A stretch of DNA of 64,000 nucleotides from Kiritimatiellia bacterium (GCA_027858965.1 JAQIBS010000107.1:35617-99616); one strand, 5' to 3'. Counted from the stretch's first letter, positions 2,126 to 38,590 are shown. Notes: generated by a model not told the origin, from the sequence alone. Translations and numbers: made by a program.

Positions 2126-2240
2126 GTGGCAGGAGTCAGGAGTCAGGTATCAGGAGTCAGGAGGGAAGGCTTTGGACTTTAGGTTGTTAGGCTTTGGGCT
2201 TTGGGTTGTTGGGCTTTAGACTTTAGTGTCTCTCTGCTCA
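2126..2240. repeat. Stop-codon-rich tandem short repeats (AGTCAGG units, then GGCTTTRGG units) starting at the stop codon of the VWA gene; an inverted GGCTTTRGG-family copy lies at 2625-2662
   Basis: Read directly from the sequence. The two blocks bracket the four-helix-bundle fragment. Confidence 0.7.
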
Positions 2241-2441
2241 CATCTGATTATGTTTGCGAAGTATTTTTTAGACAGGATGACAGGATTAACAGGATGTTTG
2301 ACTTTTAATATTGTTTTCTATGCAACGCGAAGCGTTGTTTGCTAATGCGGTAATGACTATCACACAACCTGCCATAGAATGTGATAAAATTTCGCGCATA
2401 ACATGAAAAAGTTAGGTTGCGGCGCTGCCGCGTTAGAGTGA

Positions 2442-2624
2442 ATGGAGAGTTTTATGAGAGATCATAATAAATTAGTTGCGTTTCAGTTAGCGGACAGTTT
2501 CGTGATTCAGGTTTACCGTGTAACAAAGGCATTCCCTAAAGAAGAGATGTTTGGATTAACATCACAAATGCGAAGAGCGGCTGTGTCAATTGTATCAAAT
2601 ATTGTTGAGGGGTGTGCGCAATAA
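2442..2624 (+). pseudogene. Truncated four-helix-bundle protein (23S rRNA intervening-sequence protein family), about half length
   Basis: [43 protein letters not shown] is the family signature. The ORF is 60 aa, whereas typical members are about 115 aa. It is embedded in repeat-rich DNA. Confidence 0.45.
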
Positions 2625-2663
2625 AACCCCTAAAGCCTAACAGCCCAAAGCCTAAAGCCTGAA

Positions 2664-5222
2664 ATGTACGATAAAGCAACATATATAAAAAAAGCCGCAA
2701 TCACTGTAATATTGTTCTTTGCCGGATGCAGCCTCTTTGCTGTAGAGCCTATCATCACCGTCAAGGCGATGAGCGAGAGCCGTTTTGTGTATGAGCCCTT
2801 CTATTTGCAGGTTGATGTGACTTCGGATGAGGAGTTGGATCGTCCGGTTATCGAGGAAGGCGATGGTTATACTGTGGCATCTATCTCGCATGGTTATCGC
2901 TCACCGTATAATAAAAAGAGTATCATGAGCTTCCGGGTTGAGATTGTGGCCTCTGAAAAAGGAACTCTCACTATTGCACCGGCAGTTATCACAATTGGAG
3001 AAAAGTCTTTGTCGACCTCTCCCTTGCGGCTGGTTGTGGATGAGCCGCATCGCGCCGAGGAATGTTACATTGAAATTGCTTTCAGTTCCACAAACCTTTA
3101 TGTTGATCAGGCAGTTGAGATGAACGTCAAATGGTATAGTAAAACTCCTCTCATTCAATATCGCGAGCTGATGCTGGACATTCCTGTGTTGCGCAACGAT
3201 GGATTTGTGGCCTATCCTGTTGATCCTGATTTTCCTGAAAAACAGCGCATTGGAGTGCCGGTTAATGCGCAGCGGATTATCGCCCGAAAGATGAATGATG
3301 CGCAGGGCGAGAGTCTTGCTTTTAAATATATGCTGGTGGCTAAAAAGGCCGGTCGTTACAGCTTTGATGAGCTGCGGATTGCCAGTGCTTTCATGCTTGA
3401 AAAAGAGAGCAGTAATCAGTATCCAAGTTATTTCAATAATAATTTCTTTGCTCATCCGGATGCTGGCAACCGTTTTGAAAGAGTCTATCAGACGGTCGCT
3501 ATCCCGGCTTTGGAAGTCTCTGCTTTACCTGAAAAAGGACGCACTTCGCTTTACTGCGGTGTGGCTGGTGGATTGAGTGCTGCCGCAAGCATCAATCCTG
3601 TAGAGGCTGTGGTGGGACAGCCTATGATGTATGAGGTGACACTGACGAATATGGCCTTTGGCCGACAGCTGGCAGCCCTCCCGGATGCGGTGCTGGAAAA
3701 CATTGGGCCCTCATTTAAATTGACGCTCGAACCCATTCATGAATCCGTCTCTGTTAACAGTCATCATTTTGTTTATGCGGTACGCCCATTGCGTTGTGAT
3801 ATTGACTATGTGCCGGGATTGGCTATTCAAATTTTTGATGTTGAGAGGGGAGCGTATCGCATGGTACGTACAGCCCCGCTTCCTATATCGGTTCTTCCGG
3901 ATGGTGATAAAAAAGTCTACACCCCGGATCGAGGCGGAGCAAAGAGTGGTCAAAAGGTTTTGTCAGGAATACGAGCTAACAGAAAACAAAGCGTGGTGCT
4001 TATGAATGGATATGAAATGATTGAGTTTATAGGCCGGAGAGCCTTTCTGATATGGTTGCTTGCTCCGGTTGCATGGTTGTTGATCCGCAAGCGGGTGAGG
4101 CATCTGGAACGCTGCCGCACGGATGCGGATTATGCCCGGGCTTCAAAGGCGCTGAGCCGTTTCAGAAGACTGCTCGCTGAAGATGAGGACTTTGCTTTGC
4201 GTGAGTATATTGCTGATCGATTTGGACTTTGCGCCGAGGCTATGACTCAGGAGAGCTGTGCGAGTGAACTGGAGGCGCATGGACTTTGCTCTGAGGTGGT
4301 GCAGATGGCCCGGGATTATTTTGAATCACTTGATGTGAAAAAATACTCGCCCGTCGGAGATAAAGCTGAGAGCCGTATAGGCGTTAAGAAACTGGTGAAG
4401 GCTATTGATCGGGCTACAAAAGCTTTGGTGCTGCTTTTGTTCTTAATGCCGTTGTTAACACTTGCGGACAATGCCTCTCATAAAAAGGTCACTACATTAT
4501 CAGGTAAATGTAGTGGCGGCTCTCAGAGCCGCATTGATTTAGAAACAGCTACTCATAAATTTACCGCGGCTATGGCGTTACAGGCTGCGCGACCTGATGA
4601 AGCATGTCCGTTGTTTGTAGAATCGGCTTTGGCTTTTGAGAGTGCCGGGTTTCATTTCAATGCAGGTAACAGCTGGTTTTTTGCGGGTGAGAGTGGTCGG
4701 GCATTAGCTGCTTATCTGGCTGCTGAAAGTCGGGCTCCGTTCAATCGTGAAATTAGTGAGGGAATTGCGTTTATCCGTGCTCAGCGACCGGACGATTTTC
4801 CAGCTTCCGGTGGCTTAAGCTCGGTGATTGTTACTATGTGGCAGCAGCTCTGTCGCTGGAACATCTATCTGCGTTTGGGATTTCTGTCCGTGTTATATAT
4901 GTCGCTCTGGTGTGTTTATATTCTCTCGCGGATATGGGGCTTTAAATTAGATCGGCGTTTCTGGACTGGCTGTGGTGTCGTGCTGGGGTTTATCCTGATC
5001 ACAATCTTGTACTCCCTCCTGCAACCGGAACGCGGAGTTGTGATTCAGAGTGTCGGGGCGCGGTTGGGGCCGGGCTATGCCTATGCTCCTGCGTATGAGG
5101 GTGTGCTGCATCCCGCAGTCGAGTTTGAGTGGCTGGCTGAAGAGGGCGGCTGGGTATCAGCCCGGCTGCCGGATGACAACACGGTCTGGCTGCATGAAAG
5201 CACCTGCGTCAAGGTGCGTTGA
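2664..5222 (+). CDS. Large membrane-anchored protein, BatD-like (oxygen tolerance family) with a TPR-like C-terminal region
   Basis: It has a signal peptide, a mid-protein TM segment (FLIWLLAPVAWLLIRKR), TPR-like helices and C-terminal TM helices. It lies immediately downstream of the BatA-like VWA gene, matching the bat operon arrangement. Confidence 0.4.
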   Translation: MYDKATYIKKAAITVILFFAGCSLFAVEPIITVKAMSESRFVYEPFYLQVDVTSDEELDRPVIEEGDGYTVASISHGYRSPYNKKSIMSFRVEIVASEKGTLTIAPAVITIGEKSLSTSPLRLVVDEPHRAEECYIEIAFSSTNLYVDQAVEMNVKWYSKTPLIQYRELMLDIPVLRNDGFVAYPVDPDFPEKQRIGVPVNAQRIIARKMNDAQGESLAFKYMLVAKKAGRYSFDELRIASAFMLEKESSNQYPSYFNNNFFAHPDAGNRFERVYQTVAIPALEVSALPEKGRTSLYCGVAGGLSAAASINPVEAVVGQPMMYEVTLTNMAFGRQLAALPDAVLENIGPSFKLTLEPIHESVSVNSHHFVYAVRPLRCDIDYVPGLAIQIFDVERGAYRMVRTAPLPISVLPDGDKKVYTPDRGGAKSGQKVLSGIRANRKQSVVLMNGYEMIEFIGRRAFLIWLLAPVAWLLIRKRVRHLERCRTDADYARASKALSRFRRLLAEDEDFALREYIADRFGLCAEAMTQESCASELEAHGLCSEVVQMARDYFESLDVKKYSPVGDKAESRIGVKKLVKAIDRATKALVLLLFLMPLLTLADNASHKKVTTLSGKCSGGSQSRIDLETATHKFTAAMALQAARPDEACPLFVESALAFESAGFHFNAGNSWFFAGESGRALAAYLAAESRAPFNREISEGIAFIRAQRPDDFPASGGLSSVIVTMWQQLCRWNIYLRLGFLSVLYMSLWCVYILSRIWGFKLDRRFWTGCGVVLGFILITILYSLLQPERGVVIQSVGARLGPGYAYAPAYEGVLHPAVEFEWLAEEGGWVSARLPDDNTVWLHESTCVKVR

Positions 5223-5387
5223 GTTTACTGGGTGAAATTTTATTATCCACGAAAGATCACAAGGAACACAAAGAAATACTTTGAGTTCTATGTGCTACAA
5301 ACAGTAATATTCTTGATTTTTTTGCAGGTTTTTTTCAACCACGGAGCCCATAGCGCAGCATAGCCGCAACCAAATTCTTTGACAGAA

Positions 5388-5504
5388 TTAACAGGATATT
5401 ACTGCTCCAAGGATTATTTCTCACAGAGTCACAGAGAACACGGAGAGAAAACCACTAAAGATATTACTCTGTGAACTCTGTGCCTCTGTGAGAGATAAAA
5501 AACG
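5388..5504 (+). repeat. Left arm of a ~117-bp inverted repeat (CACAGAG-rich) flanking the two SGNH hydrolase genes
   Basis: About 95% identical to the reverse complement of 8174-8292. Confidence 0.8.
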
Positions 5505-5601
5505 TACAGAAAAAACACGAAAATGAATGATAGTAGTACGAAGGACACGAAGAAAAGAATGATTTACTCATTCAACTTTGTGATCTTCGTGGTGAGGATA
5601 T

Positions 5602-6444
5602 TTAGTTGCGGGCCGCCAGCTGCTTCAGAATATTCTCCGCAATGAATGCTCCCATATACTCATAACCCTCGCCCTTGAAGTGGCAGTTTTTGGGAAGCTG
5701 ATACTCGCCAATTTTGGGTTGAATATATGCATGCAGGTCAATCACCGGTACTTTGTGACTTTTCATCAATGGAGTGGCAACTCCATTCAGACGATCGATG
5801 GAGCCTTCGACATACTCATTGGCACCTTCAGGAACCGGAGTGGATGTATACCACATGATCTTCTTTGTGCGAGGTTTAATGCGCGCAAGCAGCTTTTCCA
5901 GATTGGCGGTGTACTCTTCGGTTTTAGTACGGCGGTCGTGAATTCCGAAATTGAATACTACCAGGTCCCAGCTGTCATCGCCCAGCCAGACATCAAGCTT
6001 TTGCAATCCATAGTGGGTTGGTCCGCAGTTGGCAGGTGCCCGGTGCACATTGACTTTGCCTTTGAGTGCATTACGTACCGGCACAGTACATCCACGTGAG
6101 ATTGAGTCGCCGATAATCAGAATACGTGGTAGCGCGGGATCGTCCTTAACATAGTCCCATGCTGTAATGCTCCCCCTGGCCTTTGATTTAATGTAGAGCG
6201 GATAGTAGAAGCCACCGAGGTTTTCTGCCAGGATCTTTTCCCAGCCACGTTGTTCTGCTGAAAACTCCGGATTGGTCGTGCGGTCGGTAACAGTAGTCTG
6301 GGCTTTTTCGTTGATGGCCTTGCCGCTGCTGGGCTCTTTTGCAAATTTGGCGGCAGGATCAACTTTTTTATCCTCTGCGTTGCAGGGGGATACAGTTAGT
6401 GCATAAATGCAGAGCGTCATGAGAGAGAGCATAAAGTTTTTCAT
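5602..6444 (-). CDS. Secreted SGNH/GDSL-type hydrolase (acetylesterase/lipase-like)
   Basis: Signal peptide MKNFMLSLMTLCIYALTVSPCNA and the LIIGDSISRG block with a catalytic Ser. The start was moved to the ATG at 6444, which has an upstream purine-rich site. Confidence 0.65.
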   Translation of the reverse strand: MKNFMLSLMTLCIYALTVSPCNAEDKKVDPAAKFAKEPSSGKAINEKAQTTVTDRTTNPEFSAEQRGWEKILAENLGGFYYPLYIKSKARGSITAWDYVKDDPALPRILIIGDSISRGCTVPVRNALKGKVNVHRAPANCGPTHYGLQKLDVWLGDDSWDLVVFNFGIHDRRTKTEEYTANLEKLLARIKPRTKKIMWYTSTPVPEGANEYVEGSIDRLNGVATPLMKSHKVPVIDLHAYIQPKIGEYQLPKNCHFKGEGYEYMGAFIAENILKQLAARN

Positions 6445-6688
6445 AGATGGATCTTGTTTTGTTCGTTTTGATCGTCTGGCAATCCTTGCCATTATCATAA
6501 TCTGATGTTGTCCCGCTACGCGGAGCAACATATGTGTAGCAACGTAGGTCGGGCGCTACGAGCCCGATCCACAGCAGCAACAACTTTTCTGGTCGAGCTC
6601 GTAGCGCTCGACCTACCTCCGACAACATGTTTTTAAGGATCAATCCGGCTGAGCGGGACCTTGCCCTTCGATGAAGGGCTTAATAAAT

Positions 6689-8047: not shown

Positions 8048-8173
8048 CGTAAGGTCCTCTTTGTATTGTTTATAATTGTGTAATAGTAAATACCTTTACG
8101 GGTTTAATGTCAAGTTTGTGATTTGCCCGTCCAACTTCATACGACTATCTTTCATATCTTTGTCCTGTTATGC

Positions 8174-8292
8174 ACGTTTTTTATCTCTCACAGAGGCACA
8201 GAGTTCACAGAGTAATATCTTTAGTGGTTTTCTCTCCGTGTTCTCTGTGACTCTGTGAGAAATAATTCTTGGAGCAGTAATATCCTGGAAAA
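8174..8292 (-). repeat. Right arm of the ~117-bp inverted repeat
   Basis: See the 5388-5504 entry. Confidence 0.8.
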
Positions 8293-8798
8293 ACGCAGTA
8301 AGGCCACCCTTGTGGTGGCAGTGACCGCAGGGAGCGGCAATCCTGTCAAGAAATTGGGTTGCGGCTGAAAGCAACTTTAGACTCAATACATTAATTCTGG
8401 TATGATTTCTCCTCTAGTTTTAAGGAAAAACAGGTTTTAATATGAATTATATGATGACAGTATTTGTTTTTTGATGGCCTTGATTGTCTGTGCTCGTGAA
8501 CATCGGTTCTTGTCTCTCATGGCAATGGTGCGGGTGAGTACAGTCTGAAGGATGGCAAAAGGGTGAAGGTTATTGCTGATACCTATAAAAACATTAGCTC
8601 TGCACGGCGTCTTCTGGATGGCGGTACAATGCTGGTCAGCCGCAACGGAGAGGTTTATATGTTAAATAAATCACGAAAACAGGTTCAGTCTTTTAAAATT
8701 AGGTATTCGCCTGGCTCGATTCAAAATGTGTTGCCAAACAGGTGGTATAAGATTTATCCTATAACATTGTTTTAAGTGATTTCAGACAAGGAGTTTTT

Positions 8799-9479: not shown

Positions 9480-9486
9480 AGGATAA

Positions 9487-10362
9487 ATGATGATAGATCT
9501 GCATATTCACTCTACATTCTCCGATGGATCTGATGCTCCGGCAGATATTGTTGCTGAGTGCAAGCGACTTGGCCTGAAGACAATCGCTCTGACTGATCAC
9601 GATAATATGGCGGGGGTGCCAGCTTTTATAGATGCCTGTCGGACTGAGGGTGTTAGCGGAATCTCAGGGGTAGAGATCAGTGCTGCTCTGGATGAGGAAT
9701 TTGCTGACCGCACATTGCATATTCTTGGATATGGTCTTGATCCGCTGAATGCTCAGGTTAAAGAGCTGCTGGGGCGTGTTCTGGATGGACGTGCTTGGCG
9801 TAATGAGCGGATCTTGGAAAAATTGGCTGATATCGGTGTTGCGCTTGAGTGGGATGCCGTTGAGGCTTGTGCTGGCGAAGATGTGATTGGCCGTCCGCAT
9901 ATTGCCCGAGCAATGATTGACCGTGAATATGTTTCCACGGTGCAGGAAGCTTTTGATCGTTATCTGGCAAAAGGGGCACCCGCTTATGTGGATCGCTATC
10001 GTCTTTATCCTGAAGAGGCTGTCAAAATGATTAAGGATGCGGGTGGTTTGACCTTTTGTGCTCATCCCTTTACCTGGATTGATGATACTCGTCTTGAACA
10101 GGAGTTGGCTCGTTTTAAAGAAATGGGCCTGGCTGGAGTTGAGGTTTATCACGCAGATCATGATAATGAACAGATTATTGCCCTCTTGAGGATTGCAAAA
10201 AAACTGGATCTGATGATCTCCGGCGGCTCGGACTTTCATGGAGCGAGCAAGCCGTTGATTAAGCTTGGACGAGGACGGGATAATCTGAATATTGATGATT
10301 CTTATGCAGATGCGCTGATGGCCGCTTTGGGCCCGGATAATCCATGGGTGTATAAAAACTAA
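9487..10362 (+). CDS. PHP-domain metal-dependent phosphoesterase (TrpH/YciV-like)
   Basis: MMIDLHIHSTFSDGS is a PHP motif I, with conserved His/Asp residues throughout. Confidence 0.8.
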   Translation: MMIDLHIHSTFSDGSDAPADIVAECKRLGLKTIALTDHDNMAGVPAFIDACRTEGVSGISGVEISAALDEEFADRTLHILGYGLDPLNAQVKELLGRVLDGRAWRNERILEKLADIGVALEWDAVEACAGEDVIGRPHIARAMIDREYVSTVQEAFDRYLAKGAPAYVDRYRLYPEEAVKMIKDAGGLTFCAHPFTWIDDTRLEQELARFKEMGLAGVEVYHADHDNEQIIALLRIAKKLDLMISGGSDFHGASKPLIKLGRGRDNLNIDDSYADALMAALGPDNPWVYKN

Positions 10363-10478
10363 AGCTGCTTTCAGCCGGAACCAAACTGAGCTCTTGTGAT
10401 GTGCATGCGCTATTACCTTTGTTTGTCTGCTTGTGTATTAAGCACCGCAGCTTTAGTCAACAACGCTACGCGTTGCAT
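10363..10478 (+). repeat. Conserved ~110-bp structured element (AAAGCTGCTTTC...CCGCAGCTTTAG stem plus a CAACGC-N3-GCGTTG hairpin); copies lie at 21283-21402 (plus strand) and 32650-32725 (minus strand, partial)
   Basis: Alignment of the regions downstream of the PHP and icd genes. The CAACGCGAAGCGTTG hairpin also occurs at 2322-2342 and 61447-61467. Confidence 0.7.
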
Positions 10479-10607
10479 AAAATATCAGAAAAAAAATATG
10501 CAAGGTATGATATTAAATGATTTATCCATATCTGACTCTGTGAACTCCGTGTCTCTGTGAGAGATAAGATGTGCATAATAAACAAGAAGTTGAGAGAATA
10601 GCAACTT

Positions 10608-11477: not shown

Positions 11478-11579
11478 CTGAAATCGTGAAACGACCACAG
11501 GTTCCCCTAGCTGCCTTGTATAGGGCTCATTTGGCCCATAAGGCTCATCGTTGCATGGTCCTCAGAGGAGAAAATTTGT

Positions 11580-12203
11580 ATGAAAACTTTGAAATATCCC
11601 TTTACGCTCCAATCAATTAAAGAACTGCATGCTGGCGATGGCGTCAGGCTCTCCGGAACGATTTATACCGGTCGCGATCGGTTGCATAAATTTATGGCGG
11701 AGGGCGGAGAGCTGCCTGTTGATCTGCACAATGCCGCATTGTTTCATTGCGGGCCGGTTGTGGTCAGGGAAGATCAGGGTTGGAGAGTGAAAGCCGCTGG
11801 GCCGACAACTTCGATCCGAGAGGAACCCTATATGGCAAAGGTGATTGCCAGTCATGGGGTCCGCGTGATCATCGGCAAAGGAGGCATGGGCCAGGCAACC
11901 CTTGATGCCTGTAAACGCTATGGCTGCATATATTTGCAGGCAACCGGCGGGGCTGCTGCTTTGCTGGCCCGTGGTATAAAAAAAGTGGATGATGTGTATT
12001 TTCTGGATGAGTTTGGCGCGACCGAGGCTATGTGGAAGTTGGAGGCGGACTCTCTTGACCTGGTGGTGGGTATGGATACGTATGGATGTAATCTGTATGC
12101 AGAGGTGCGCAGGTCCTCCTTTCAGAAGATGGAAGAAGTTCTAAAGTGCGAGAGTTATAAAAACAAGAAATTGAGAAATCAGCTAAATACGGGTAGCTGG
12201 TAG
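11580..12203 (+). CDS. Class I fumarate hydratase / Fe-S hydro-lyase beta subunit
   Basis: Similarity to the FumA C-terminal / TtdB domain (GTIYTGRDRLHKF...IGKGGMG). It pairs with the alpha-subunit gene. Confidence 0.8.
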   Translation: MKTLKYPFTLQSIKELHAGDGVRLSGTIYTGRDRLHKFMAEGGELPVDLHNAALFHCGPVVVREDQGWRVKAAGPTTSIREEPYMAKVIASHGVRVIIGKGGMGQATLDACKRYGCIYLQATGGAAALLARGIKKVDDVYFLDEFGATEAMWKLEADSLDLVVGMDTYGCNLYAEVRRSSFQKMEEVLKCESYKNKKLRNQLNTGSW

Positions 12204-12285
12204 TCTGTAGCTGGTAGCAAAAATGCAGAGCAAGCTACACGCTACAAGCCACAAGCTTCAAGCTGGGTTGCGGGCAGAGCCCGCT
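12204..12285. repeat. TAG-containing tandem repeat (GCTGGTAG/TCTGTAG units) overlapping the stop of the fumarase beta gene
   Basis: AGCTGGTAGTCTGTAGCTGGTAGC ... GCTACACGCTACAAGCCACAAGC. Confidence 0.6.
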
Positions 12286-12298
12286 TTAGGAGTTAGTT

Positions 12299-14173: not shown

Positions 14174-14207
14174 GGGGGGGCAGCTTGCTGCTCCCTTATT
14201 TTATTTC
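14174..14207 (+). terminator. Rho-independent terminator
   Basis: GGGGGCAGC-TTG-CTGCTCCC hairpin of 8 bp with one G-U pair, followed by TTATTTTATTTC. Confidence 0.6.
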
Positions 14208-14362: not shown

Positions 14363-16654
14363 TTGGATATTTCTTGTTGGCTGTTGGGTGTTGAATTTTT
14401 CATGATTATACGTGTTGCCACAGAGGTTGTTCTTGATAAGCTGTATGACTATGCAGTGCCGGTAGCGCTTGTCCCTAAAATCAAACCGGGGCTGCGGGTC
14501 AGGGTCCCGTTAGGTAGTCGGGTTGTTGATGCTTATGTGGTCGAAGTTCTGGAGGGGGGCGGTTCGGATGAGAGCGAGCTCCCTCTCTTTTCAGGCAAGC
14601 CTGCGGAACAAAGCACGGGCAGACAGTATAAACTGCGTTACATCAATGCTATCTCAGATGAGATACCTTTTGTTTCAGAGAATCTGCTTAAGCTGGTTCA
14701 ATGGATGGCGGATTATTACTGCGCCCCATTCGAACAGAGTTTGCGCTGCATCCTGCCCGCCGCAGTGCGCTCTAAATCCATGCGCTCTAAAGAGCAGATC
14801 TATGTTGAGATACAACAAGGAGATTTCAAGCTTACCAAACGACAGAGCGAGCTATTTACAGAGATTAAGCGGGTAGGCGGAGGTTGGCTGAGTTTTCTGA
14901 CCCGTGAATTCTCATGCGCTCCCGGGACAATTCGTAATCTGGAAAAGAGCGGAGCTGTTAAGATCGAACTCCGTCAGGTTTGGCGCGACCCTTTGGCTAA
15001 CCGCAAGGTGCTTCCAACCCGGCCGATGGAACTCATGCCCGAACAAAGCGCGGCATTGAAAAGTATCTCTGCGTTAATCGATCAGTCGGCCAATGGGGAA
15101 AAGACCGCTCCGATTCTGTTGCATGGTGTGACCGGTTCAGGTAAGACAGAGGTCTACCTACAGGCCATTGCCAAAGTGCTTGAGCAGGGGCGCGGTGCGA
15201 TAGTGCTGGTTCCTGAAATTGCGCTGACCCCCCAGACAGTACAGCGTTTTGCCGCCCGTTTCGGTAAGAGGATTGCCGTTCTTCACAGCGCCCTCAGCGA
15301 AGGTGAGCGCTTTGATGAGTGGCACCGAATTCGCAGCGGCAAAGCTGATGTTGTGATTGGCCCGCGATCCGCTCTGTTTGCCCCTGTCAGGAATCCGGGT
15401 CTGATTGTGGTGGATGAGGAGCATGAACCAAGCTACAAACAGGATGAAACTCCTCGTTATCACGCCCGGGATGTGGCTGTTGTGCGTGGCGTCATGGAGG
15501 GATGTGTTGTCGTGCTCGGTACTGCAACACCCTCTATGGAGAGCTGGAATAATGTCCAGAGCGGCAAGTATAATCATGTGGCTTTGACTAAACGGGTCTC
15601 AGATCGGCCTATGCCGGATGTCTATATTGTGGATATGCGTATTGAGGCTGCCAGTGCGCGGCATGCCCAGATCTTTTCAGCCCCTTTGATGGAGGCCATT
15701 AAATTACGTCTGGAACGCGGGGAACAGACTATCCTCTTTTTGAACAGGCGAGGATTCTCCAACTCTTTGCAGTGTCCTGAGTGCGGTCATGTGGCTGAGT
15801 GCCAGGAGTGCAATGTGGCCTATACTTATCATCAATCTGATTCCTGTCTGCGCTGTCATATCTGCGGCGGTTGGAAACATGTTCCTGCCACCTGTTCTGA
15901 ATGCGGTGAGCCTGTTCTCAAATATGCAGGCTATGGTACTCAGCGAGTAGAGACCGCGCTCAGAAAATGTTTTTCTCAGGCCCGGGTTTTGCGAATGGAT
16001 GCCGATGTAACCACTCGTAAAAGCAGTCACGATGAACTGCTGACTATATTCAGAACCAAGCAGGCTGATATTTTAATTGGAACCCAGATGATAGCCAAGG
16101 GACTTGATTTTCCCAATGTGACCCTGGTCGGAGTCCTGAATGCGGATATCAGTTTGCATATGCCCGATATTCGTGCCAGTGAGCGGACCTGGCAGCTGCT
16201 GGCGCAGGTTTCTGGACGGGCCGGACGGGCCGATCTGCCGGGTGAAGTATTTATTCAGACTTACTCTCCTGAGCATCCCTCTATACGTGTGGCCGGTGGC
16301 TTCGAAAGTTTTGAGACTCTGGCTGAGAGAGAGTTGAAAGAGCGCCGTGAATGGTGTTATCCTCCCTTTACTCATTTGGTATGCCTGATATTTAGAGGTA
16401 AGTCGGAGCAGAAGACCGCTCTGGCTGCAAAGTGTTATGCTGATGCCTTGAAAAAGGGCTCTCCATCTGTGATTGTCTCTGATGCGGCTCCGGCTCCTCT
16501 GCCAAAAGCACGCGGTTTTTACCGTTATCAGATCTTGATGCGCTCTCCCTCAACTATGAAAATGGTTAAAATACTAAGGGCGCTTATGGCCTGTCAAAGC
16601 CCAGGGGAAGCTGTTAGAATGAGTATTGATGTGGATGCCGTGAATATGATGTGA
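14363..16654 (+). CDS. priA: Primosomal protein N' (replication restart helicase)
   Basis: Walker A GVTGSGKT, DEEH box, Cys-rich zinc-binding region (CPECGH...CQEC...CHICG) and helicase C motifs. The true start may be the internal ATG near 14402. Confidence 0.9.
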   Translation: MDISCWLLGVEFFMIIRVATEVVLDKLYDYAVPVALVPKIKPGLRVRVPLGSRVVDAYVVEVLEGGGSDESELPLFSGKPAEQSTGRQYKLRYINAISDEIPFVSENLLKLVQWMADYYCAPFEQSLRCILPAAVRSKSMRSKEQIYVEIQQGDFKLTKRQSELFTEIKRVGGGWLSFLTREFSCAPGTIRNLEKSGAVKIELRQVWRDPLANRKVLPTRPMELMPEQSAALKSISALIDQSANGEKTAPILLHGVTGSGKTEVYLQAIAKVLEQGRGAIVLVPEIALTPQTVQRFAARFGKRIAVLHSALSEGERFDEWHRIRSGKADVVIGPRSALFAPVRNPGLIVVDEEHEPSYKQDETPRYHARDVAVVRGVMEGCVVVLGTATPSMESWNNVQSGKYNHVALTKRVSDRPMPDVYIVDMRIEAASARHAQIFSAPLMEAIKLRLERGEQTILFLNRRGFSNSLQCPECGHVAECQECNVAYTYHQSDSCLRCHICGGWKHVPATCSECGEPVLKYAGYGTQRVETALRKCFSQARVLRMDADVTTRKSSHDELLTIFRTKQADILIGTQMIAKGLDFPNVTLVGVLNADISLHMPDIRASERTWQLLAQVSGRAGRADLPGEVFIQTYSPEHPSIRVAGGFESFETLAERELKERREWCYPPFTHLVCLIFRGKSEQKTALAAKCYADALKKGSPSVIVSDAAPAPLPKARGFYRYQILMRSPSTMKMVKILRALMACQSPGEAVRMSIDVDAVNMM

Positions 16655-16657
16655 AGA

Positions 16658-16728
16658 AGTGCGCGAGTGCGAGAGTTCTAAAGTGCGAGAGTTCTAAAGT
16701 GCGAGAGAGCTAAAGTGTAATTTTTAAA
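16658..16728 (+). repeat. Three tandem units of AGTGCGAGAGTTCTAA (the GTTCTAAAGTG family); related copies lie at 25562-25600 (minus strand), 21448-21480 and 61418-61450
   Basis: Shared core CGAGAGTTCTAAAGTG found at two loci, with degenerate copies at two more. Confidence 0.7.
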
Positions 16729-16807
16729 CATTGGGCCCATATGGCTCATACGGCCCACAGCGCAGCCTGTCGCCGCAGGCGACTCTCTTCATACGGCCCA
16801 TAATAAA

Positions 16808-17125
16808 ATGAGTACGATTTACGATAGAATGCAGAACCACCCGGAGATCACGCCTTTTCGTCAACGGGTGTTTGATGCTCTGCTGGAGGTGCCATGTGGT
16901 TATGTGACCACCTACGGTGCACTGGCCCGACGGATTAACTGCGGATCGGCTCGGGCGGTTGGCGGAGCTCTGCGCCATAATCCCCTGGCTCCTGAGGTGC
17001 CTTGCCATCGTGTGGTTGCCTCGGATCTGACCATTGGCTTCATGTTTTGCCTGACGCAACATATGCAAAGGGGTTCGCTTCGTAATGAACACTGTCAACT
17101 GTCAACTGTAGACTGTAGACTGTAG
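16808..17125 (+). CDS. Methylated-DNA-protein-cysteine methyltransferase family protein (DNA-binding/active-site domain only)
   Basis: The VPCHRVV active-site motif. The last ~9 codons and the stop are encoded by a CTGTAGA-type tandem repeat. Confidence 0.7.
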   Translation: MSTIYDRMQNHPEITPFRQRVFDALLEVPCGYVTTYGALARRINCGSARAVGGALRHNPLAPEVPCHRVVASDLTIGFMFCLTQHMQRGSLRNEHCQLSTVDCRL

Positions 17126-17135
17126 ACTGTAAATA
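17087..17135 (+). repeat. Tandem CTGTCAA/CTGTAGA heptamer repeats encoding the C-terminus and stop of the MGMT-family ORF
   Basis: CTGTCAACTGTCAACTGTAGACTGTAGACTGTAGACTGTAAATAGG. Confidence 0.8.
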
Positions 17136-17144
17136 GGAGATAAG

Positions 17145-20010: not shown

Positions 20011-21276
20011 ATGGCGTACGATAAAATCAAAGTCCCGGATTTTGGCAAAAAGATTACGATGAATGCCGGTGGAAAACTTAATGTGCCTGACCAACCGATT
20101 ATTCCATTTATCGAAGGTGATGGTATTGGTGCTGATATAACTAAAGCGGCCATGATTGTATGGGATGCCGCTGTCGAAGCCGCCTATGGCGACAGCCGTA
20201 AGATTGCCTGGATGGAGGTTTATGCGGGAGAGAAGGCCATTGATACATATGACGCTGAAACATGGCTGCCCAAAGAGACCCTGGAAGCTTGCCGCGAATA
20301 TCTGGTCTCAATCAAAGGACCTTTGACTACACCGGTTGGTGGAGGAATCCGCTCTCTGAATGTAGCTCTGCGCCAGGAACTGGACTTGTATGTATGTCTA
20401 CGCCCCGTTCGCTGGTTTGACGGAGTTCCCTCTCCGGTCAAGAAACCTGAGCTGACTAATATGGTTATCTTCCGTGAAAACACCGAGGATATCTACGCCG
20501 GTATTGAGTGGATGGCAAAGAGTGATGATGCCAAAAAGATTATCGCTTTTATGCAGGAGGAGCTGGGTGTAGATAAGATCCGTTTCCCTGAAAGTTCATC
20601 TATCGGTATCAAGCCGGTCTCTGAAGAGGGCACTAAGCGTTTGGTTCGTGCTGCTATTGATTACGTAATTGCTAACGATCGTAAGAGTATGACTCTGGTT
20701 CATAAAGGTAATATCATGAAGTTTACCGAAGGTGGCTTCCGTGACTGGGGTTATGAGGTGGCCAAAAAGGAGTATGGCGCTAAGTTGATGGGTGATGGCC
20801 CCTGGCGCTCTTTCAAGAACCCGAAGACCGGCCGTGAGATTGTTGTTAAGGATTGCATTGCCGATGCATTCCTTCAGCAGATTCTGACTCGTCCAGCTGA
20901 GTATGATGTGATTGCAACATTGAACCTGAATGGTGATTACATCTCTGATTCGTTGGCTGCCTGTGTTGGCGGTATTGGAATTGCTCCAGGCGGTAATATC
21001 AATTATGTAACCGGTGTTTCTATCTTTGAAGCAACTCACGGTACAGCACCGAAGTATGCCGGTCTGGATAAGGTTAACCCTGGCTCGCTGATTCTCTCCG
21101 GTGAGATGATGTTGCGTTACATGGGCTGGACAGAGGCTGCTGATAAAATCATCCTGGCGATGGATAAGGTCATCGGTGCTAAGACTGTGACCTACGACTT
21201 TGCACGCCTGATGGCGGGTGCTAAGCTGACATGCTGCAGCGATTTTGCTAAGGCGCTTGCTGCTGCAATGAAGTAG
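20011..21276 (+). CDS. icd: NADP-dependent isocitrate dehydrogenase
   Basis: Roughly 420 aa and the IDH signature [22 protein letters not shown]...NLNGDYISD. Confidence 0.9.
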
Positions 21277-21525
21277 AGCTAAAGCTGCTTTCCGCCGCAA
21301 CCAAACTGAGCTAGTGTGATGTACGAAATCAGCTTCTCTAAACGTCTCTTTTTGTGTTAAGCATCGCAGCTTTAGACAACAACGCTTCGCGTTGCATAAG
21401 AAAACATAGAAGAGAGATCAATTTTCAGAAGACAATTTTGAGGTTTAAGCACCAAAGTGAACGGCCCGCACTTTAGCACTCAAACCTCTGCGCCCTCAGC
21501 GCCCTCAGCGAGGAATAAACAGCGG

Positions 21526-25374: not shown

Positions 25375-25451
25375 TGGGTATAAGCTTTCCAAAAACTTTG
25401 TCTATTTGACCTTAAAAGACCAAGTAAAATCTGATTTTAACGTAAATCCAT

Positions 25452-25532
25452 CTTTCGGGATCGCTATCGGCATCGGTATCGCTACTCGAACTGCATTTTC
25501 GATAGCGATGCCGATAGCGATCCCGATTCCGA
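25452..25532. repeat. Inverted hexamer-repeat hairpin (GGTATC/GGCATC arrays with ~28-bp arms) in the dctQ leader, downstream of gntR
   Basis: ATCGCTATCGGCATCGGTATCGCTACTCG ... CGATAGCGATGCCGATAGCGATCCCGAT; the two arms are reverse complements. Confidence 0.7.
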
Positions 25533-25628
25533 ACTTCAACTTAAACGGCGCTACCTCTTCACTTTAGAACTCTCGAACTCTCGAACTTTAGAATTTCTCC
25601 ACTCCGCGACCAGCTCGTACCTAGCCGC

Positions 25629-26342: not shown

Positions 26343-26615
26343 TGTTCTCCTTTGCGTTTTAATATATCAAAACCTCGGTTGTTATGTCAAATGCTTAAGT
26401 TCAAATTATTGTTAATGAGTATGCTTTGATTTAGATGGGTGATTTTGGATGTGTGCCGGATGTTTAAATTTGCACCCAATTTGCAATAAAACCCTTTATA
26501 TAAAGGGACTAAATGGTTATAAAACCCTCTGTTTGTGGTTTCGTTGGGGAGATAGTATTTATGTTCGATTTTTGATGCATCATCTGCTTTAGAGTAAGTA
26601 GGGTGATATTAGCCG

Positions 26616-26644
26616 TTGACAATTGCAATATGATATATCATAAT
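26616..26644 (+). promoter_or_regulatory. Sigma70-type promoter (TTGACA, 17 bp, CATAAT) with an embedded TGATATATCA palindrome, for LamG paralog 1
   Basis: Hexamers and spacing read from the sequence. A near-identical 31-bp block precedes LamG paralog 2. Confidence 0.6.
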
Positions 26645-26698
26645 GAAAAAACTTAATATAAAAGTAGATTGCTAATCTTTAAAGGCAAAGGAGATGTT

Positions 26699-28981: not shown

Positions 28982-29000
28982 GTCGTCCAGATACCGGTCG

Positions 29001-29183
29001 AATTGGAGGGGCGCTGGCCCAGCGCCCGTGAGCAGGTGTCGAGCGTACGGATAGCGGACCGTGAGGCCACGGTCCCTCCAGAATCGCGGCGATGCCGCGA
29101 TCGGATTGACTTGCAGTTGCTGGCCTGACCCGCCGCGTGTGGCTTGAAATGGAGGGGCGCTGGCCCAGCGCCCGTGAGCAGGT
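29001..29183. repeat. Two direct copies (~38 bp, 145 bp apart) of a palindromic element GGAGGGGCGCTGGCCCAGCGCCCGTGAGCAGGT, with further hairpins between them
   Basis: Copies lie at 29001-29037 and 29146-29183. Each contains a perfect GGGCGCTGG/CCAGCGCCC palindrome. Confidence 0.75.
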
Positions 29184-29271
29184 ACTGAGCGTAGGGCATA
29201 AATAGCGTGGAAGAGCCAAAAGTTAACCCAGAGTTTAATACATACAGTTTTTACAGGAGAATATTTACCAA

Positions 29272-32598: not shown

Positions 32599-32722
32599 TC
32601 AGGGTATTCGAATAACAACCCGATAATTAGAGAAAATAGTTGGGTATATCACAAGAGCTCAGTTCCTCCTCCGTCAAGACTCCGGCGTGACATGTTAGTT
32701 GCGGCGGAAAGTAGCTTTAGTT

Positions 32723-32732
32723 TGATATATCA
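32723..32732. promoter_or_regulatory. Additional TGATATATCA palindrome (candidate operator)
   Basis: Perfect 10-bp palindrome. It shares the 13-bp ATATATCAAAACC with the gntR upstream region at 26362-26374. Confidence 0.4.
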
Positions 32733-32987
32733 AAACCAGCGAATGCTTTTTACAGAGCCCGTATTTGAATTTTGTATTTGAGGTGGCGGCAGTTGATGGT
32801 CAAAAATCAGGGGGTTCTGTCGAAAGATCAATGAAGATTACGGGTGTTGTGTGTGTTTATCCCTTTTAATATTGGGTTTTACGAAATATATGGGTTTTGT
32901 AGATTATAATATAATTTTGATTAAGTTACCGCTCTGGAGAGATCTCTCGTTGCCTTGAATACGATAAATAATATATTGGCTTATCGG

Positions 32988-33016
32988 TTGACAATTTCAA
33001 TATGATATATCATAAT
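32988..33016 (+). promoter_or_regulatory. Sigma70-type promoter (TTGACA, 17 bp, CATAAT) with an embedded TGATATATCA palindrome, for LamG paralog 2
   Basis: 30 of 31 bp identical to the 26616-26644 block. Confidence 0.6.
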
Positions 33017-33064
33017 GTTACGCATTAACTGTAAGAGTTTGTTATCCTTCAGGTAGGAGATGTT

Positions 33065-35353: not shown

Positions 35354-35450
35354 CAGGAGCAGGAACGCTTCTGTTTCTGGATCATTACACTGCATAAATA
35401 CGGAGCAGGGACTCTTTCGTTCCTGTCTCTTTTTAATAAAGGCACTTTTT

Positions 35451-37316
35451 ATGAATAATCATTTTTCTCTCAATCATGCGCTCTCTCTATTGATTTGCAC
35501 CTGCACCTTCCATGCAGCTGCCGTTACCCCTGCGGCCACTTCTTCAACGATCCCCGACATGCGGCACATAGCAACCGGATGGGAGATCCCCAGCAAGCAC
35601 TATGCCGATCAGCCCTACATCGTAAAAACCGATGACGGGGCCTGGCTCTGCTGTATCACCACTGGTAGTGGTCATGAAGGTACACCCGGTCAGCATGTGA
35701 TCTCAATGCGCAGTACCGATCAGGGTAAAACATGGTCTGCCCCCGTGGCTCTTGAACCCGCCGGTGGACCGGAAGCCTCTTATGCTGTCATGCTTAAAAC
35801 GCCTTATGGTCGCATTTACTGCTTCTATAATCATAATACCGACCGCGTTAAAGAGGTGAAGCGTGAGGACAAAGGTGTCTATAAACGTGTCGATTCCCTG
35901 GGTCACTATGTTTTCAAGTATACGGACGACCACGGTCGTTCATGGTCAAAGCAACGCTATGATATTCCCATGCGTACCTTCGATTGTGACAGCGAGAATG
36001 TTTACGGAGGAAAATTAAAATTCTTCTGGAACGTCGGGCGTCCGCTGATTTACAAAAATGCCGCCATCTGCGTGATCCATAAAGTCGGCGCTATGGGTGC
36101 GGGATTCTTTGCCCGCTCAGAGGGTGCCTTCCTGAAAAGTGAAAATATCCTGACAGAACGCGATCCTTCAAAGGTTAGCTTTAAAACACTCCCTGAGGGT
36201 ACCATCGGCCTGCGCACACCTCCGGGAGGCGGACGTGTTTCCGAAGAACAGAGTATCGTCGCGCTTAGCGACGGCTCCATCTTCTGCGTCTACCGCACCA
36301 TTGACGGCTGGCCCACCACCGCCTACAGCCGCGACGGTGCCCGGACCTGGAGCACTCCCGCCTACATGACCTACACGCCCGGTGGTAAACGCGTCAAACA
36401 TCCCCGTGCCGCAAACTTTGTGTGGAAATGCTCCAATGGTAAATTCCTCTATTGGTTCCATAATCATGGCGGACGTTTTATCGGTGAACTTGGTGCTAAC
36501 GGTAAAAACGGGCAGAGTCCATATGATGATCGTAATCCTGCATGGCTCATGGCCGGCCGTGAGATTGACACACCAAAGGGTCGCATGCTTGAATGGTCAC
36601 AGCCGGAGATACTGCTCTATGATGATGATCCCGCCGTCCGCATGAGTTACCCTGATCTGGTGGAGGAGAATGGAAAGTTCTATGTTACGGAGACCCAGAA
36701 AGTTATTGGGCATACCCATCTGATTGACTCTGCCTTGGTGAACGGTTTATTCAACCAGTGGGAGAATAAATCTGTTGCTGAAAAGGGGCTGATTCTGAAT
36801 CTTTCAAACAAAAAACCTATGCCCTCTCAAGCTAAGATGCCAGGATTGCCGGCAATCACCAAGAAAGATAAAGATCTGCGGAAAGGCTGTAGCATTGACC
36901 TGTGGCTGAAAGCTGATGAGCTTACACCTGGACAACCTCTTCTCGACAGCCGTGATAATGATGGCAGGGGACTTCTCGTTTCGATTGCAGAGAAGGGCGC
37001 ACTCCGCATTCTCTTTAGTGATGGACGAACCGAGGCCTCCTGGTCCAGTGACAACGGACTCCTGAAAGCCGGCACTGCGCATCATGCCGTGATTACCGTG
37101 GATGGTGGTCCCAAAATTATCACCTTTGTTGTTGATGGAACGCTTTGCGATGGAGGCGACCAGCGCCAGTTTGGATGGGGTCGCTTCAGTCGCGACCTGC
37201 GTACATTCAACGGTGCGTCTATGCTGAAAATCGACCCCGCAGTTCAATCACTGCGCATTTATAACCGTGCCATCCGTACCAGTGAGGCAGTTGGAAATTT
37301 CAAGGCTGGATTGTAA
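35451..37316 (+). CDS. BNR-repeat exo-alpha-sialidase-like glycosidase with a C-terminal LamG-like domain
   Basis: Signal peptide and BNR motifs STDQGKTWSAP, TDDHGRSWSKQ and SRDGARTWSTP. The start was set at the ATG at 35451. Confidence 0.7.
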   Translation: MNNHFSLNHALSLLICTCTFHAAAVTPAATSSTIPDMRHIATGWEIPSKHYADQPYIVKTDDGAWLCCITTGSGHEGTPGQHVISMRSTDQGKTWSAPVALEPAGGPEASYAVMLKTPYGRIYCFYNHNTDRVKEVKREDKGVYKRVDSLGHYVFKYTDDHGRSWSKQRYDIPMRTFDCDSENVYGGKLKFFWNVGRPLIYKNAAICVIHKVGAMGAGFFARSEGAFLKSENILTERDPSKVSFKTLPEGTIGLRTPPGGGRVSEEQSIVALSDGSIFCVYRTIDGWPTTAYSRDGARTWSTPAYMTYTPGGKRVKHPRAANFVWKCSNGKFLYWFHNHGGRFIGELGANGKNGQSPYDDRNPAWLMAGREIDTPKGRMLEWSQPEILLYDDDPAVRMSYPDLVEENGKFYVTETQKVIGHTHLIDSALVNGLFNQWENKSVAEKGLILNLSNKKPMPSQAKMPGLPAITKKDKDLRKGCSIDLWLKADELTPGQPLLDSRDNDGRGLLVSIAEKGALRILFSDGRTEASWSSDNGLLKAGTAHHAVITVDGGPKIITFVVDGTLCDGGDQRQFGWGRFSRDLRTFNGASMLKIDPAVQSLRIYNRAIRTSEAVGNFKAGL

Positions 37317-37318
37317 TC

Positions 37319-38422
37319 ATGGGTAATGGCTGGCAGAAAAGTATGCATGACCGCGTGGAGCTGTTTCAACAGTTTCATTGTCGGGAGAATGCACGTCCGC
37401 TGTTTGGCTTTTTTAAAGGCAGCGAATACCCTTTGACGCGCTATCCTTTCAGCCAGATTCTCCCCGAAGGCCGTGAGCTGCAGCCTGATGATTTTGATGT
37501 CGCCGCTTTTGTCGATAATGCCGAACAGCTCTTTCTTGAGCATGAAGCCTGTGGCGGAGATTTTATTTACAGCGCCAGCGCCTTCTGGGGTATTCCCTGG
37601 TTAGAGGCCTCTCTGGGCTGCCCGCTTTTTGCCAATCAGACCACCGGTTCAATTTACTGTGAGCCGCCATCGAATTTTTCTGTCGATTCAGTGCCGTCTT
37701 TTAACCGCAACAATCCCTGGATACGCCTGATGGTGGATATGCTCTCTGCGTTGGCGCAGAGAAGCGCCGGTCGCTTTCCTTTGGCAACCACCCGCATGCG
37801 TGGTGTGGCCGATCTGCTCTCTGCATTGTATGGCGGCGATGCTTTTGTTTTTGCATTGTTTGATAAACCAGATGAAGTTATGCAGGTTTGCCGTTGTGTT
37901 ACCGATCATTTTATTCAGTGCGCTGCGCTGCAGTTGGAGCATATACCGGATTTCTACGGTGGGATAGGTTCGTTTTACTATTACATGTGGGCTGCAAAGG
38001 GGACGGTGTGGCATCAGGAGGATGCCGCGGCTTTGCTATCCCCCGATCTATATACACAGTTTGTCGAACCATTTGATCGTCAGATTGTCGCATCTTTCCC
38101 GCATGTAGTCATGCATCAGCACTCAACCGGATTTGTTCCAACCGAGAAATATCTTGAAATGGGTATGAGTGTGCTGGAATTGCATATCGACAGCGGGGGA
38201 CCATCCGCCCGTGACTTATACGAACGTCATCTGGCAATTCTTGAGAAGTGCCCTCTTCTTATCTGGGGTGATATTCCGAAAGAAGACCTCGACTGGATTT
38301 TCTGCAAGCTTCCCGTACAAGGGCTTGCTATAATAACAGTGGTCAAAGATGCCGATGAGGCACAACAACTATGGGAGCGCTATGTCAAGCATCCGATAGA
38401 ATGCAGGTGTTTAGGTGTTTAG
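37319..38422 (+). CDS. Conserved hypothetical protein, possibly URO-D/MtaA-like (beta/alpha)8 fold
   Basis: Only weak resemblance to uroporphyrinogen-decarboxylase-family proteins. It starts 3 bp after the sialidase stop, and its last codons lie in a TAG-rich repeat. Confidence 0.4.
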   Translation: MGNGWQKSMHDRVELFQQFHCRENARPLFGFFKGSEYPLTRYPFSQILPEGRELQPDDFDVAAFVDNAEQLFLEHEACGGDFIYSASAFWGIPWLEASLGCPLFANQTTGSIYCEPPSNFSVDSVPSFNRNNPWIRLMVDMLSALAQRSAGRFPLATTRMRGVADLLSALYGGDAFVFALFDKPDEVMQVCRCVTDHFIQCAALQLEHIPDFYGGIGSFYYYMWAAKGTVWHQEDAAALLSPDLYTQFVEPFDRQIVASFPHVVMHQHSTGFVPTEKYLEMGMSVLELHIDSGGPSARDLYERHLAILEKCPLLIWGDIPKEDLDWIFCKLPVQGLAIITVVKDADEAQQLWERYVKHPIECRCLGV

Positions 38423-38590
38423 ACTGTTAGGTGTTTTGGTATTGGATAAACCATCTTTTCAAAACAGTACATCTGCATTTCACCTAACAGCCTAAACCAG
38501 CGAAGCCGGAATCAAATAGGCAGTAAGTAACAGGAGAATATTTTCTGACAGTCTAACAGTCTAATAGCCGAACAGCCTAAAAACCTAAGC
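38405..38590. repeat. TAG-rich intergenic repeat region with inverted repeats (GTTTAGACTGTTAGGTG / CACCTAACAGCCTAAAC)
   Basis: Direct and inverted short repeats read from the sequence. Confidence 0.6.

Follow-up and report, generated by a model that had tools for sequence, protein, structure and literature searches.

The window analysed here, a stretch of 64,000 nt from Kiritimatiellia bacterium (GCA_027858965.1 JAQIBS010000107.1:35617-99616; one strand, 5' to 3'), contains five protein-coding genes whose 3' ends are in contact with short tandem repeats, and one of these genes is followed by a small cassette in which tandem arrays enclose a gene of the PF05635 family. The identity of the named genes was upheld by Pfam, which recognizes a VWA protein, fumarase beta (Fumerase_C), PriA, an MGMT-like protein (DNA_binding_1) and a weak URO-D-like protein (the 37319 gene); the other genes of the window are ordinary metabolic, transport, glycoside-hydrolase and signalling genes. 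Judged from sequence, the source is an uncultured member of the Planctomycetes-Verrucomicrobia-Chlamydiae (PVC) group with a Lentisphaerota/Kiritimatiellota-like genome: fumarase beta is 67% identical to that of a Lentisphaeraceae metagenome-assembled genome (MAG) and 55-65% identical to those of Kiritimatiellia MAGs, and homologues of the 37319 protein carry the source labels Kiritimatiellae, Victivallales and Lentisphaerae. Contigs near-identical to the window occur in three sister samples of the Joint Genome Institute (JGI), so that one faulty assembly cannot account for the repeats.

All five contacts between repeats and stop codons claimed in the initial annotation are present in the sequence, while some of the repeat units had been misdescribed. 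The VWA gene does end NW-TAG, yet the supposed GGTAG repeats are five CAGGAGT heptamers followed by about eight units of the GGCTTTG/GGACTTTAG type. Repeats do follow priA, with a period of 8/16 nt and not 12 nt. Fumarase beta ends GSW-TAG inside repeats, as described, these being four GGTAGCT heptamers (12192-12218); the last 11 codons and the TAG of the MGMT-like gene are encoded by ACTGTCA/ACTGTAG heptamers, and the last codons and TAG of the 37319 gene by AGGTGTTT octamers. The coordinates of these and other features are given in Table 1.

Table 1. Genes, tandem arrays and hairpin-shaped elements in the 64,000-nt window.
Feature	Position	Strand	Remarks
VWA gene	152-2125	+	Pfam; ends NW-TAG, TAG at 2123-2125
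CAGGAGT x5 heptamers	2124..2163	+	Begin on the VWA stop; unit without a stop triplet
5' arm of PF05635 cassette	2167..2226	+	About 8 units GGCTTTG/GGACTTTAG/GGTTGTTA; all three frames closed
GACAGGAT x3 array within cassette	2271..2296	+	Resembles GACAGAT heptamers of the Coxiella rRNA intervening sequence
Structured leader, ~130 nt, upstream of PF05635 open reading frame	2318..2446	+	Four copies in all within the window
Truncated PF05635 (23S_rRNA_IVP / Avd-like four-helix-bundle) open reading frame, 56 aa	2454..2624	+	Pfam E = 1.1e-17
3' arm of cassette, CCTAAAG/CCCAAAG units	2629..2660	+	Ends 3 nt before BatD start at 2664
85-nt hairpin, CACAGAG-repeat arms	5414..5498	.	z = -8.9 and -6.6 (two copies); inverted second copy 8181-8265
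Fumarase beta gene	11580-12203	+	Ends GSW-TAG, stop 12201-12203
Three-unit AGTKCNNN remnant AGTTCTAA AGTGCGAG AGTTATAA	12137..12160	+	Open-frame part of extended fumarase-beta C-terminus
Gene-less hairpin	12192..12264	+	GGTAGCT x4, 12-nt loop, AGCTACA x5; z = -1.8; identical in sister contig L002
priA	14363-16654	+	Ends NMM-TGA
Solo array, eight AGTKCNNN octamers AGTGCGAG/AGTTCTAA	16658..16721	+	Begins 3 nt past native priA stop
Partial ATGGGCC-type palindromic element	16735..16805	+	In block absent from L004
MGMT-like gene (DNA_binding_1)	16808..17125	+	Between octamer and heptamer arrays; no L004 counterpart between priA and next gene
ACTGTCA x2 + ACTGTAG x4 heptamers	17091..17133	+	End 11 nt before next start; unstructured, z = +0.5
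Hairpin, hexamer-repeat arms TCGGNA / TNCCGA	25455..25526	.	96% complementary; z = -7.95; away from stop codons
AGTKCNNN array with GGAGAA leader	25558..25600	-	Sense-oriented; ~30 nt downstream of minus-strand GntR stop (25629)
37319 gene, weak URO-D-like	37319-38422	+	Stop TAG 38420-38422
Left arm of gene-less hairpin, AGGTGTTT/AGACTGTT octamers	38405..38440	+	Shares its arm family with 2167-2226
Complementary arm units CACCTAACAGCCTAAACC; TCTAACAG x4.6	38480..38590	+	Split by 69-nt segment absent from 90%-identical relative L160
ATGGGCC-armed palindrome	48496..48628	.	Fills spacer between two minus-strand genes; z = -9.8; second copy 51993-52132

The five arrays are not isolated. At a Tandem Repeats Finder (TRF) score of 36 or more the window holds 32 tandem arrays against 2.65 in shuffled sequence, an excess of about 12-fold, and 25 of the 32 fall in the intergenic DNA that makes up 13.6% of the window. 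A core shared between loci, as had been proposed, is borne out, GTTCTAAAGTG being present in five exact copies and one copy with a single mismatch where 0.95 are expected. Spacers also show a roughly 9-fold excess of the hexamer CTAAAG/CTTTAG (22 in 8.5 kb, compared with 15 in 55 kb of coding sequence). This hexamer is a core common to the octamers, the arms of the PF05635 cassettes and a 130-nt element described below. The richness of the arrays in stop codons, also remarked on earlier, is partly a matter of definition, since an open reading frame (ORF) that enters an array and ends there must end at a stop inside it. As the periods are not multiples of three, one stop triplet per unit is enough to close all three frames within three units.

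The structure downstream of the VWA gene lies between two protein-coding genes, VWA and BatD, outside any rRNA; indeed, an Rfam scan of the window at gathering thresholds gave no match and no rRNA. Its two arms (2167-2226 and 2629-2660) are 84-90% complementary to each other and enclose an ORF that matches (at 2454-2621) profile positions 2-51 of 106 of PF05635 and is thus truncated. Inverted pairing of this kind is found for many arrays of the window; the initial annotation mentioned neither it nor the enclosed PF05635 gene. PF05635 is a four-helix-bundle family which includes the Avd protein of diversity-generating retroelements (PMC10053308). The leader in front of this ORF is a 130-nt element with further copies at 10360-10487 (-), 21274-21401 (-) and 61450-61573 (+), in addition to that at 2318-2446 (+), and it is kept in another organism (L086:5575-5682). 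It combines a 5' hairpin, CAACGC-GAA-GCGTTG, with a long-range stem CTAAAGCTGC/GCAGCTTTAG in which two compensatory pairs are found, and has no match in Rfam. One copy serves as leader of the PF05635 ORF; the remaining three terminate on stop codons of convergent genes.

Nine further cassettes were found in other metagenome contigs, where gene models are simple ORF calls unless supplied by the source: two in L050 and one each in L115, L125, L137, L142/143, L146-148, L150-152 and L155-159, the last four being homologues of the L050 protein at unrelated host loci. The PF05635 homologues in L050, L115, L125, L137 and L142-L159 are full-length. Tandem-repeat arrays flank the gene in all nine cases, inverted in eight and mostly direct in L137, with arms of 50-87 nt that are 70-87% complementary, and the cassettes are co-oriented with their hosts in 8/8 cases with a visible protein-coding neighbour (L115 left out). 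The hosts include glycosyltransferase, epimerase-DegT, cysH-cysN and galU-like genes. The upstream host gene has its stop codon inside the first units of the arm in eight of the nine cassettes, as in CGT-TGA-A in CGTTGAA arrays, GGAGATCGT-TGA-AGACGTTGAAG in L155 or AGAGGT-TGA-AAGGGTTGAAGG in L050; in L125 the host stop, CAG-TAG, falls within GCAGTAG heptamers. The 3' arm is the complement (TTCAACG and similar) and ends 0-35 nt before the next start, which often has no Shine-Dalgarno sequence. All three sense frames are closed by 6 of the 10 5' arms (window included), compared with 21% of other non-coding arrays. Where PF05635 proteins are 62-70% identical, their arms have the GTT[GA]AA core in common although the host loci are unrelated (a gene of glycosyltransferase family 4 (GT4), cysH-cysN, hexapeptide transferase-GT2 and epimerase-DegT), which suggests that ORF and arms move as a unit. 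In one cassette the number of units in the 5' arm is about 12, 27 or 36 depending on the sample, the rest of the locus being unchanged.

Cassettes and octamer arrays alike are concentrated in glycosyltransferase and polysaccharide-synthesis clusters (L050, L115, L125, L137, L142, L150, L155), and L115 and L155 each hold two PF05635 genes close together. Contigs L142 and L143 share an NfeD gene, the GT4 gene, the PF05635 cassette and a 54-codon ORF and then continue with different genes, so that the cassette may mark a recombination breakpoint. In the metagenome collection at large, 80 of 120 PF05635 clusters are present only on contigs shorter than 2.5 kb, which was not used as evidence as the median contig of the collection is only about 1 kb.

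The array at the end of the 37319 gene is the left arm of a hairpin without a gene. The arrays at 38405-38590 have TTTAGGCTGTTAGG in common with the cassette arms at 2167-2226/2629-2660, and this hairpin is on that account taken as a gene-less copy of the same arm family. The protein continues for 11 residues past a conserved LW..Y motif, whereas nearly all of the approximately 80 homologues examined end 2-6 residues past it, giving a tail about 7-9 residues longer than theirs. The exception is the 90%-identical relative, which keeps both the tail and the hairpin; its left-arm array has a 6-nt indel, and 69 nt of its right arm are missing. Fumarase beta presents a similar picture, as the C-terminus is about 12-19 residues longer than in nine orthologues with free-standing ends, and the GGTAGCT array has an inverted partner, AGCTACA x5, at 12231-12264. 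Here the exception is the fumB of the Lentisphaeraceae contig L004, which likewise ends inside octamers of the AGTGCGCG type. An apparent loss of the fumB hairpin in sister contig L001 proved to be a run of N, that is a scaffold gap rather than an empty site. The comparison of orthologous C-termini suggested in the initial annotation thus gives lineage-specific extra residues for both proteins.

At priA and the MGMT-like gene the comparison with L004 is informative, since this contig is syntenic with the window from the PHP gene to the D-Tyr deacylase gene. Its priA has the same NMM-TGA end and is followed by the next gene after 16 nt, and the whole block 16655-17130 of the window (octamer array, partial ATGGGCC element, MGMT-like gene and heptamers) is absent. 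With arrays at both borders, and with the same priA end and a 16-nt spacer in L004, the block looks like an array-bounded insertion; from the alignment, either it was inserted in the window lineage or it was lost in L004. A sister sample has one extra 16-nt unit after priA in otherwise identical sequence over the remaining 5.7 kb. The octamers and heptamers were considered as paired arms around the MGMT-like gene and rejected, as they are not complementary to each other, and a mini-ORF in the 16-nt unit (GTG-CGA-GAG-TTC-TAA) was discarded because variant units lose it. The Pfam domain of the MGMT-like protein stops at residue 94 of 105. Its sequence past the PCHRVV motif looks atypical, and the gene may be decaying; in one sister-sample contig (L018) it has a 63-nt in-frame deletion.

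The octamers after priA belong to a family, (AGTKCNNN)n, that extends far beyond the window. A metagenome scan returned chance matches plus at least about 45 contigs with in-register arrays; these contigs are unrelated and range in G+C content from 40 to 66%. The census comprises at least 72 non-redundant arrays of 3-12 units, AGTTCTAA, AGTGCGAG and AGTTCATT being the commonest units, and the arrays are preceded by a purine-rich tract ending in GGAGA. Among the matches listed, 10/16 octamer arrays with a co-oriented upstream gene lie within 25 nt of its stop codon and 0/13 lie that close to an antisense 3' end; the distance to the next start is mostly 70-600 nt. Arrays also occur inside ORFs, 13 in sense orientation and in a single open frame against 4 in antisense (again among the matches listed). 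In GT4 glycosyltransferases the in-frame octamers split the Pfam domain, which continues past the insert; in a PriA 58% identical to that of the window (L063) an octamer insertion adds about 22 residues in a loop, and in L104 and L137 the coding sequence resumes past the element. Such placement inside conserved genes is seen in relatives and not in the window. Inverted pairs consisting of an array followed by its complement outnumber the reverse order by 11 to 1. In pairs of orthologues the octamer arrays are 92-97% identical and the flanking coding windows 67-97%. The Haemophilus uptake sequence AAGTGCGGT, which AAGTGCGAG resembles, was set aside because the motif is tandem and strand-biased here.

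On balance, we are inclined to think that the five repeats do not constitute a single device at stop codons and are instead part of a large population of imperfect arrays with a period of 6-9 nt that fills the spacers of this genome, many of these arrays being arms of palindromic insertion elements. At least two of the five stop-contact arrays appear to be arms of small hairpin-shaped insertion elements, a view held with higher confidence for the VWA and 37319 loci and with lower confidence for the CAGGAGT array and for those standing alone at priA and the MGMT-like gene. Hairpins lacking a gene, and single arms, probably represent cassettes in reduced form. The architecture is observed, as are its recurrence at unrelated loci, the host stops within arms, the lineage-specific tails and the variation in unit number, which is most simply explained by slippage. 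A complete element comprises a 5' tandem arm, a leader, the four-helix-bundle ORF and a complementary 3' arm, and is built like the intervening sequence (IVS) of 23S rRNA. It lies within a host operon, is co-oriented with the genes around it and takes up the whole spacer. Since the period of the 5' arm is not a multiple of three and a unit usually contains a stop triplet, the host gene often ends in the first unit, and a host frame entering the arm is closed within about three units. By analogy with the rRNA IVS, the arms may pair in the transcript and be cut by RNase III, which would free the cassette; the upstream message would keep a stem at its 3' end, the downstream message would begin with a short leader, and both would stay usable. 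A stop-bearing 5' arm would keep host ribosomes out of the element, and copies without one would be lost near gene ends. The earlier proposal that inserted elements supply new stop codons is thereby largely supported, given the fumB and 37319 tails, the block missing from L004 and the in-frame octamers elsewhere.

Several observations weigh against this account. In the window cassette itself the host stop is not in the arm: 41 nt separate the VWA stop from the inverted arm downstream, and the CAGGAGT units next to this stop contain no stop triplet. Neither an inverted partner close by nor a PF05635 gene accompanies the CAGGAGT array, the priA octamers or the MGMT heptamers, which are putative reduced forms. 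A search of the other contigs compared for CAGGAGT, GGTAGCT, ACTGTAG and AGGTGTTT yielded essentially no matches, and these units may be of local origin; the same was true of GGCTTTG. Pfam and the gene survey show no gene for a transposase, integrase or reverse transcriptase in the 64 kb. Most of the strongest hairpins of the window are located away from stop codons, and in some of them the arm without stops comes first. PF05635 cassettes number only 10 (window included), of which four were reached via one subfamily, and the octamer scan employed a single 15-mer seed, GTTCTAAAGTGCGAG, its counts applying to the matches listed. Finally, the claim that repeats are placed exactly at stop codons is not significant within the window: if each array is shifted randomly inside its spacer, a margin of 40 nt of gene edge being permitted, 4.0-4.5 contacts would be expected, compared with 5 observed (P = 0.35-0.48). 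The spacers are short, and contact with 3' ends in the window does not exceed chance.

This permutation result is what would be expected if the repeats were neutral clutter in very short spacers and the stop contacts a by-product, with no function or targeting. The partly definitional stop content agrees with such a view, as does the equal number of window arrays within 5 nt of 3' and 5' gene ends (3 vs 3 at TRF score 40 or more), a crude count that is uninformative. Against it, octamers abut co-oriented stops in other contigs and never antisense ones, other arrays are found 14 times at 3' ends compared with 7 times at 5' ends, and the host stop is in the first units of nearly all non-window cassettes, so that we regard pure clutter as quite improbable. 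A somewhat better case, which we still judge to be unlikely, can be made for home-grown microsatellites of the short tandemly repeated repetitive (STRR) or Beggiatoa TAACTGA type, grown by slippage and serving in the transcript as platforms for single-strand RNA-binding proteins (S1, Csp, CsrA-like) without being mobile. This would account for the units private to the window genome, for the differences in unit number between samples and for the unstructured nature of the priA, MGMT and VWA arrays. The orientation of the octamers relative to genes is as in TAACTGA repeats, 13 sets of which overlap the upstream stop codon in Beggiatoa (PMC4679880), and the higher conservation of octamer arrays than of most flanking coding sequence also fits. 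What it leaves unexplained is the presence of the same arm families at unrelated loci and in unrelated organisms, the inverted array pairs around one gene family in 9/10 cassettes (direct in the tenth), the arrays bordering the block missing from syntenic L004 and the octamers in frame inside PriA and glycosyltransferase genes.

The two functional readings put forward in the initial annotation fare worse. Transcription terminators or insulators at gene 3' ends would agree with the hairpins that the fumB and 38405 arrays form right after the stop, and palindromic elements do close frames from both sides. However, folding z-scores leave three of the five arrays unstructured (priA +0.7, MGMT +0.5, VWA 0.0) and two weak (fumB -1.8, 38400 -2.2), a T-run is absent from all five, and a terminator scan picks up none of the arrays. 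The sole convincing intrinsic terminator in the first 20 kb is a canonical one elsewhere (14174-14197), for which the relative L004 has the same hairpin and T-run. As many arrays are also situated among co-transcribed genes and almost reach the next start codon, a terminator function is very improbable. Slipped-strand contingency loci that switch protein C-termini can likewise be given hardly any credence. Periods of 7-8 nt would indeed shift the frame with every unit gained or lost, and unit number varies in populations, but the variation observed is confined to non-coding arrays; fumB, the MGMT-like gene and 37319 have identical coding tails in the sister samples, and the 37319 tail is kept in the 90%-identical relative. 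The targets are housekeeping enzymes, with tails that lie beyond the conserved domains.

The insertion elements that we favour resemble several known systems without being identical to any of them. In the 23S rRNA IVS of Coxiella a terminal stem carries the S23p (PF05635) ORF in its loop, together with an AGAAGA tract and GACAGAT heptamers whose number varies among strains, and RNase III cleaves at the first repeat (PMC4990558). The cassettes are like the Coxiella and Leptospira IVS in having a PF05635 ORF in the loop of a terminal-inverted-repeat stem inside a host transcript, a purine-rich AGAAGA tract with variable-number tandem heptamers upstream of the ORF, and an ORF that is often decaying, the window copy being truncated. 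They differ in their location between or inside protein-coding genes rather than in helix 25 or 45 of 23S rRNA, in arms that are long tandem arrays (up to about 36 units) where the IVS has a unique stem of 28 bp, and in supplying the stop of the upstream gene; also, excision by RNase III is proposed here by analogy and was demonstrated in Coxiella only (PMC4990558). TAACTGA heptamers are known from Beggiatoaceae, cyanobacteria and Bacteroidetes, where most sets closely precede a start codon and all but one case were described as direct repeats (PMC4679880). Like these and the cyanobacterial STRR sequences, the arrays described here are intergenic, strand-oriented heptamers in 2 to 40+ copies, with stops in three forward frames, some sets overlapping the upstream stop, and with a patchy phylogenetic spread. 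Cyanobacterial STRR heptamers are intergenic direct repeats with units such as CCCCAGT, TTGGTCA and CAACAGT. The units differ from those found here (CAGGAGT, GGTAGCT, ACTGTAG, AGGTGTTT, AGTKCNNN), as does the host phylum; moreover, the octamers hug the upstream stop, in contrast to TAACTGA repeats, which mostly hug the next start and have no reported link to PF05635.

Rickettsia palindromic elements and the Correia elements of Neisseria are small palindromes that can be accommodated in frame within genes, or give rise to such insertions and to new ends of genes. The octamers in frame in PriA and GT4 genes of relatives are comparable, although the arms here are tandem arrays of short units and not unique terminal inverted repeats, the sequence families are unrelated and no TA target duplication of the Correia type is evident at the element borders. 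Integron cassettes consist of a small promoterless ORF with an imperfect palindromic attC site, the ORF stop often lying in the recombination site. They share with the present elements an ORF bounded by imperfect palindromes, and GTTAGGC and GCCTAAC do occur in the window arms; the present arms, however, are tandem, stand on both sides of the ORF and have housekeeping neighbours. An attC identity was rejected since the GTTRRRY / RYYYAAC consensus is not kept in GTTGAAA-type arms and neither an integrase (in the 64 kb) nor a cassette array is present. A full-text literature search found no paper on the octamer strings and none on tandem repeats at stop codons in Verrucomicrobia. The parts (rRNA IVS with S23p, stop-rich heptamers, in-frame palindromes) are known, and for their combination in messenger operons, where tandem-repeat arms close the host genes, no description was found.

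Other hairpins and repeats add to the repeat content of the window. Strong hairpins (z -5 to -10) lie at 5410-5502, 8177-8269, 25450-25532, 48490-48632 and 59475-59575. The two CACAGAG hairpins bracket two GDSL-lipase genes, the similarity extending into the flanks to about 130 nt each, and a partial copy is present at 10535-10570. The ATGGGCC elements are also about 130 nt long, with heptamer arms and two inner hairpins, and have partial copies at 11510-11550 and 16735-16805. A 30-nt promoter- or operator-like sequence with a palindrome, GTTGACAATTKCAATATGATATATCATAATG, occurs at 26612-26645 and 32987-33020, upstream of two large Laminin_G_3/PKD genes (26669.. and 33065..). The spacer before a GH123/SASA gene contains a direct repeat, about 40 nt long (29005-29045 and 29151-29190), with the palindrome GGGCGCTGGCCCAGCGCCC. 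The sulfatase ORF 42817-43401 covers only profile positions 1-124 of 301 and may be a truncated gene; the spacer following it is rich in repeat motifs (GACAGGAT, GGTTGCG..).

A more far-reaching interpretation can be offered tentatively, as a possibility that we would not call probable. PF05635 cassettes may be IVS-like selfish elements of messenger operons, their arms acting both as portable stops and as RNase III sites that excise the cassette. The gene-less hairpins and solo arrays, including in-frame octamers in essential genes and possibly the heptamers of cyanobacteria, Beggiatoaceae and Bacteroidetes, would then be miniature derivatives, and the Avd-like protein might aid their spread, for example together with a reverse transcriptase acting in trans. 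The architecture seen in the window and its relatives touches three puzzles that have been treated separately for decades, namely the identity of the rRNA IVS and S23p, the abundant stop-rich heptamers next to genes in some bacteria and the in-frame palindromes in essential genes. For genome annotation in these lineages, the elements account for lineage-specific C-terminal tails, for spurious small ORFs on the arms and for contig breaks by four-helix-bundle genes. If the arms are RNA processing sites, operon expression would be reshaped by them in a phylum whose post-transcriptional control is barely known.

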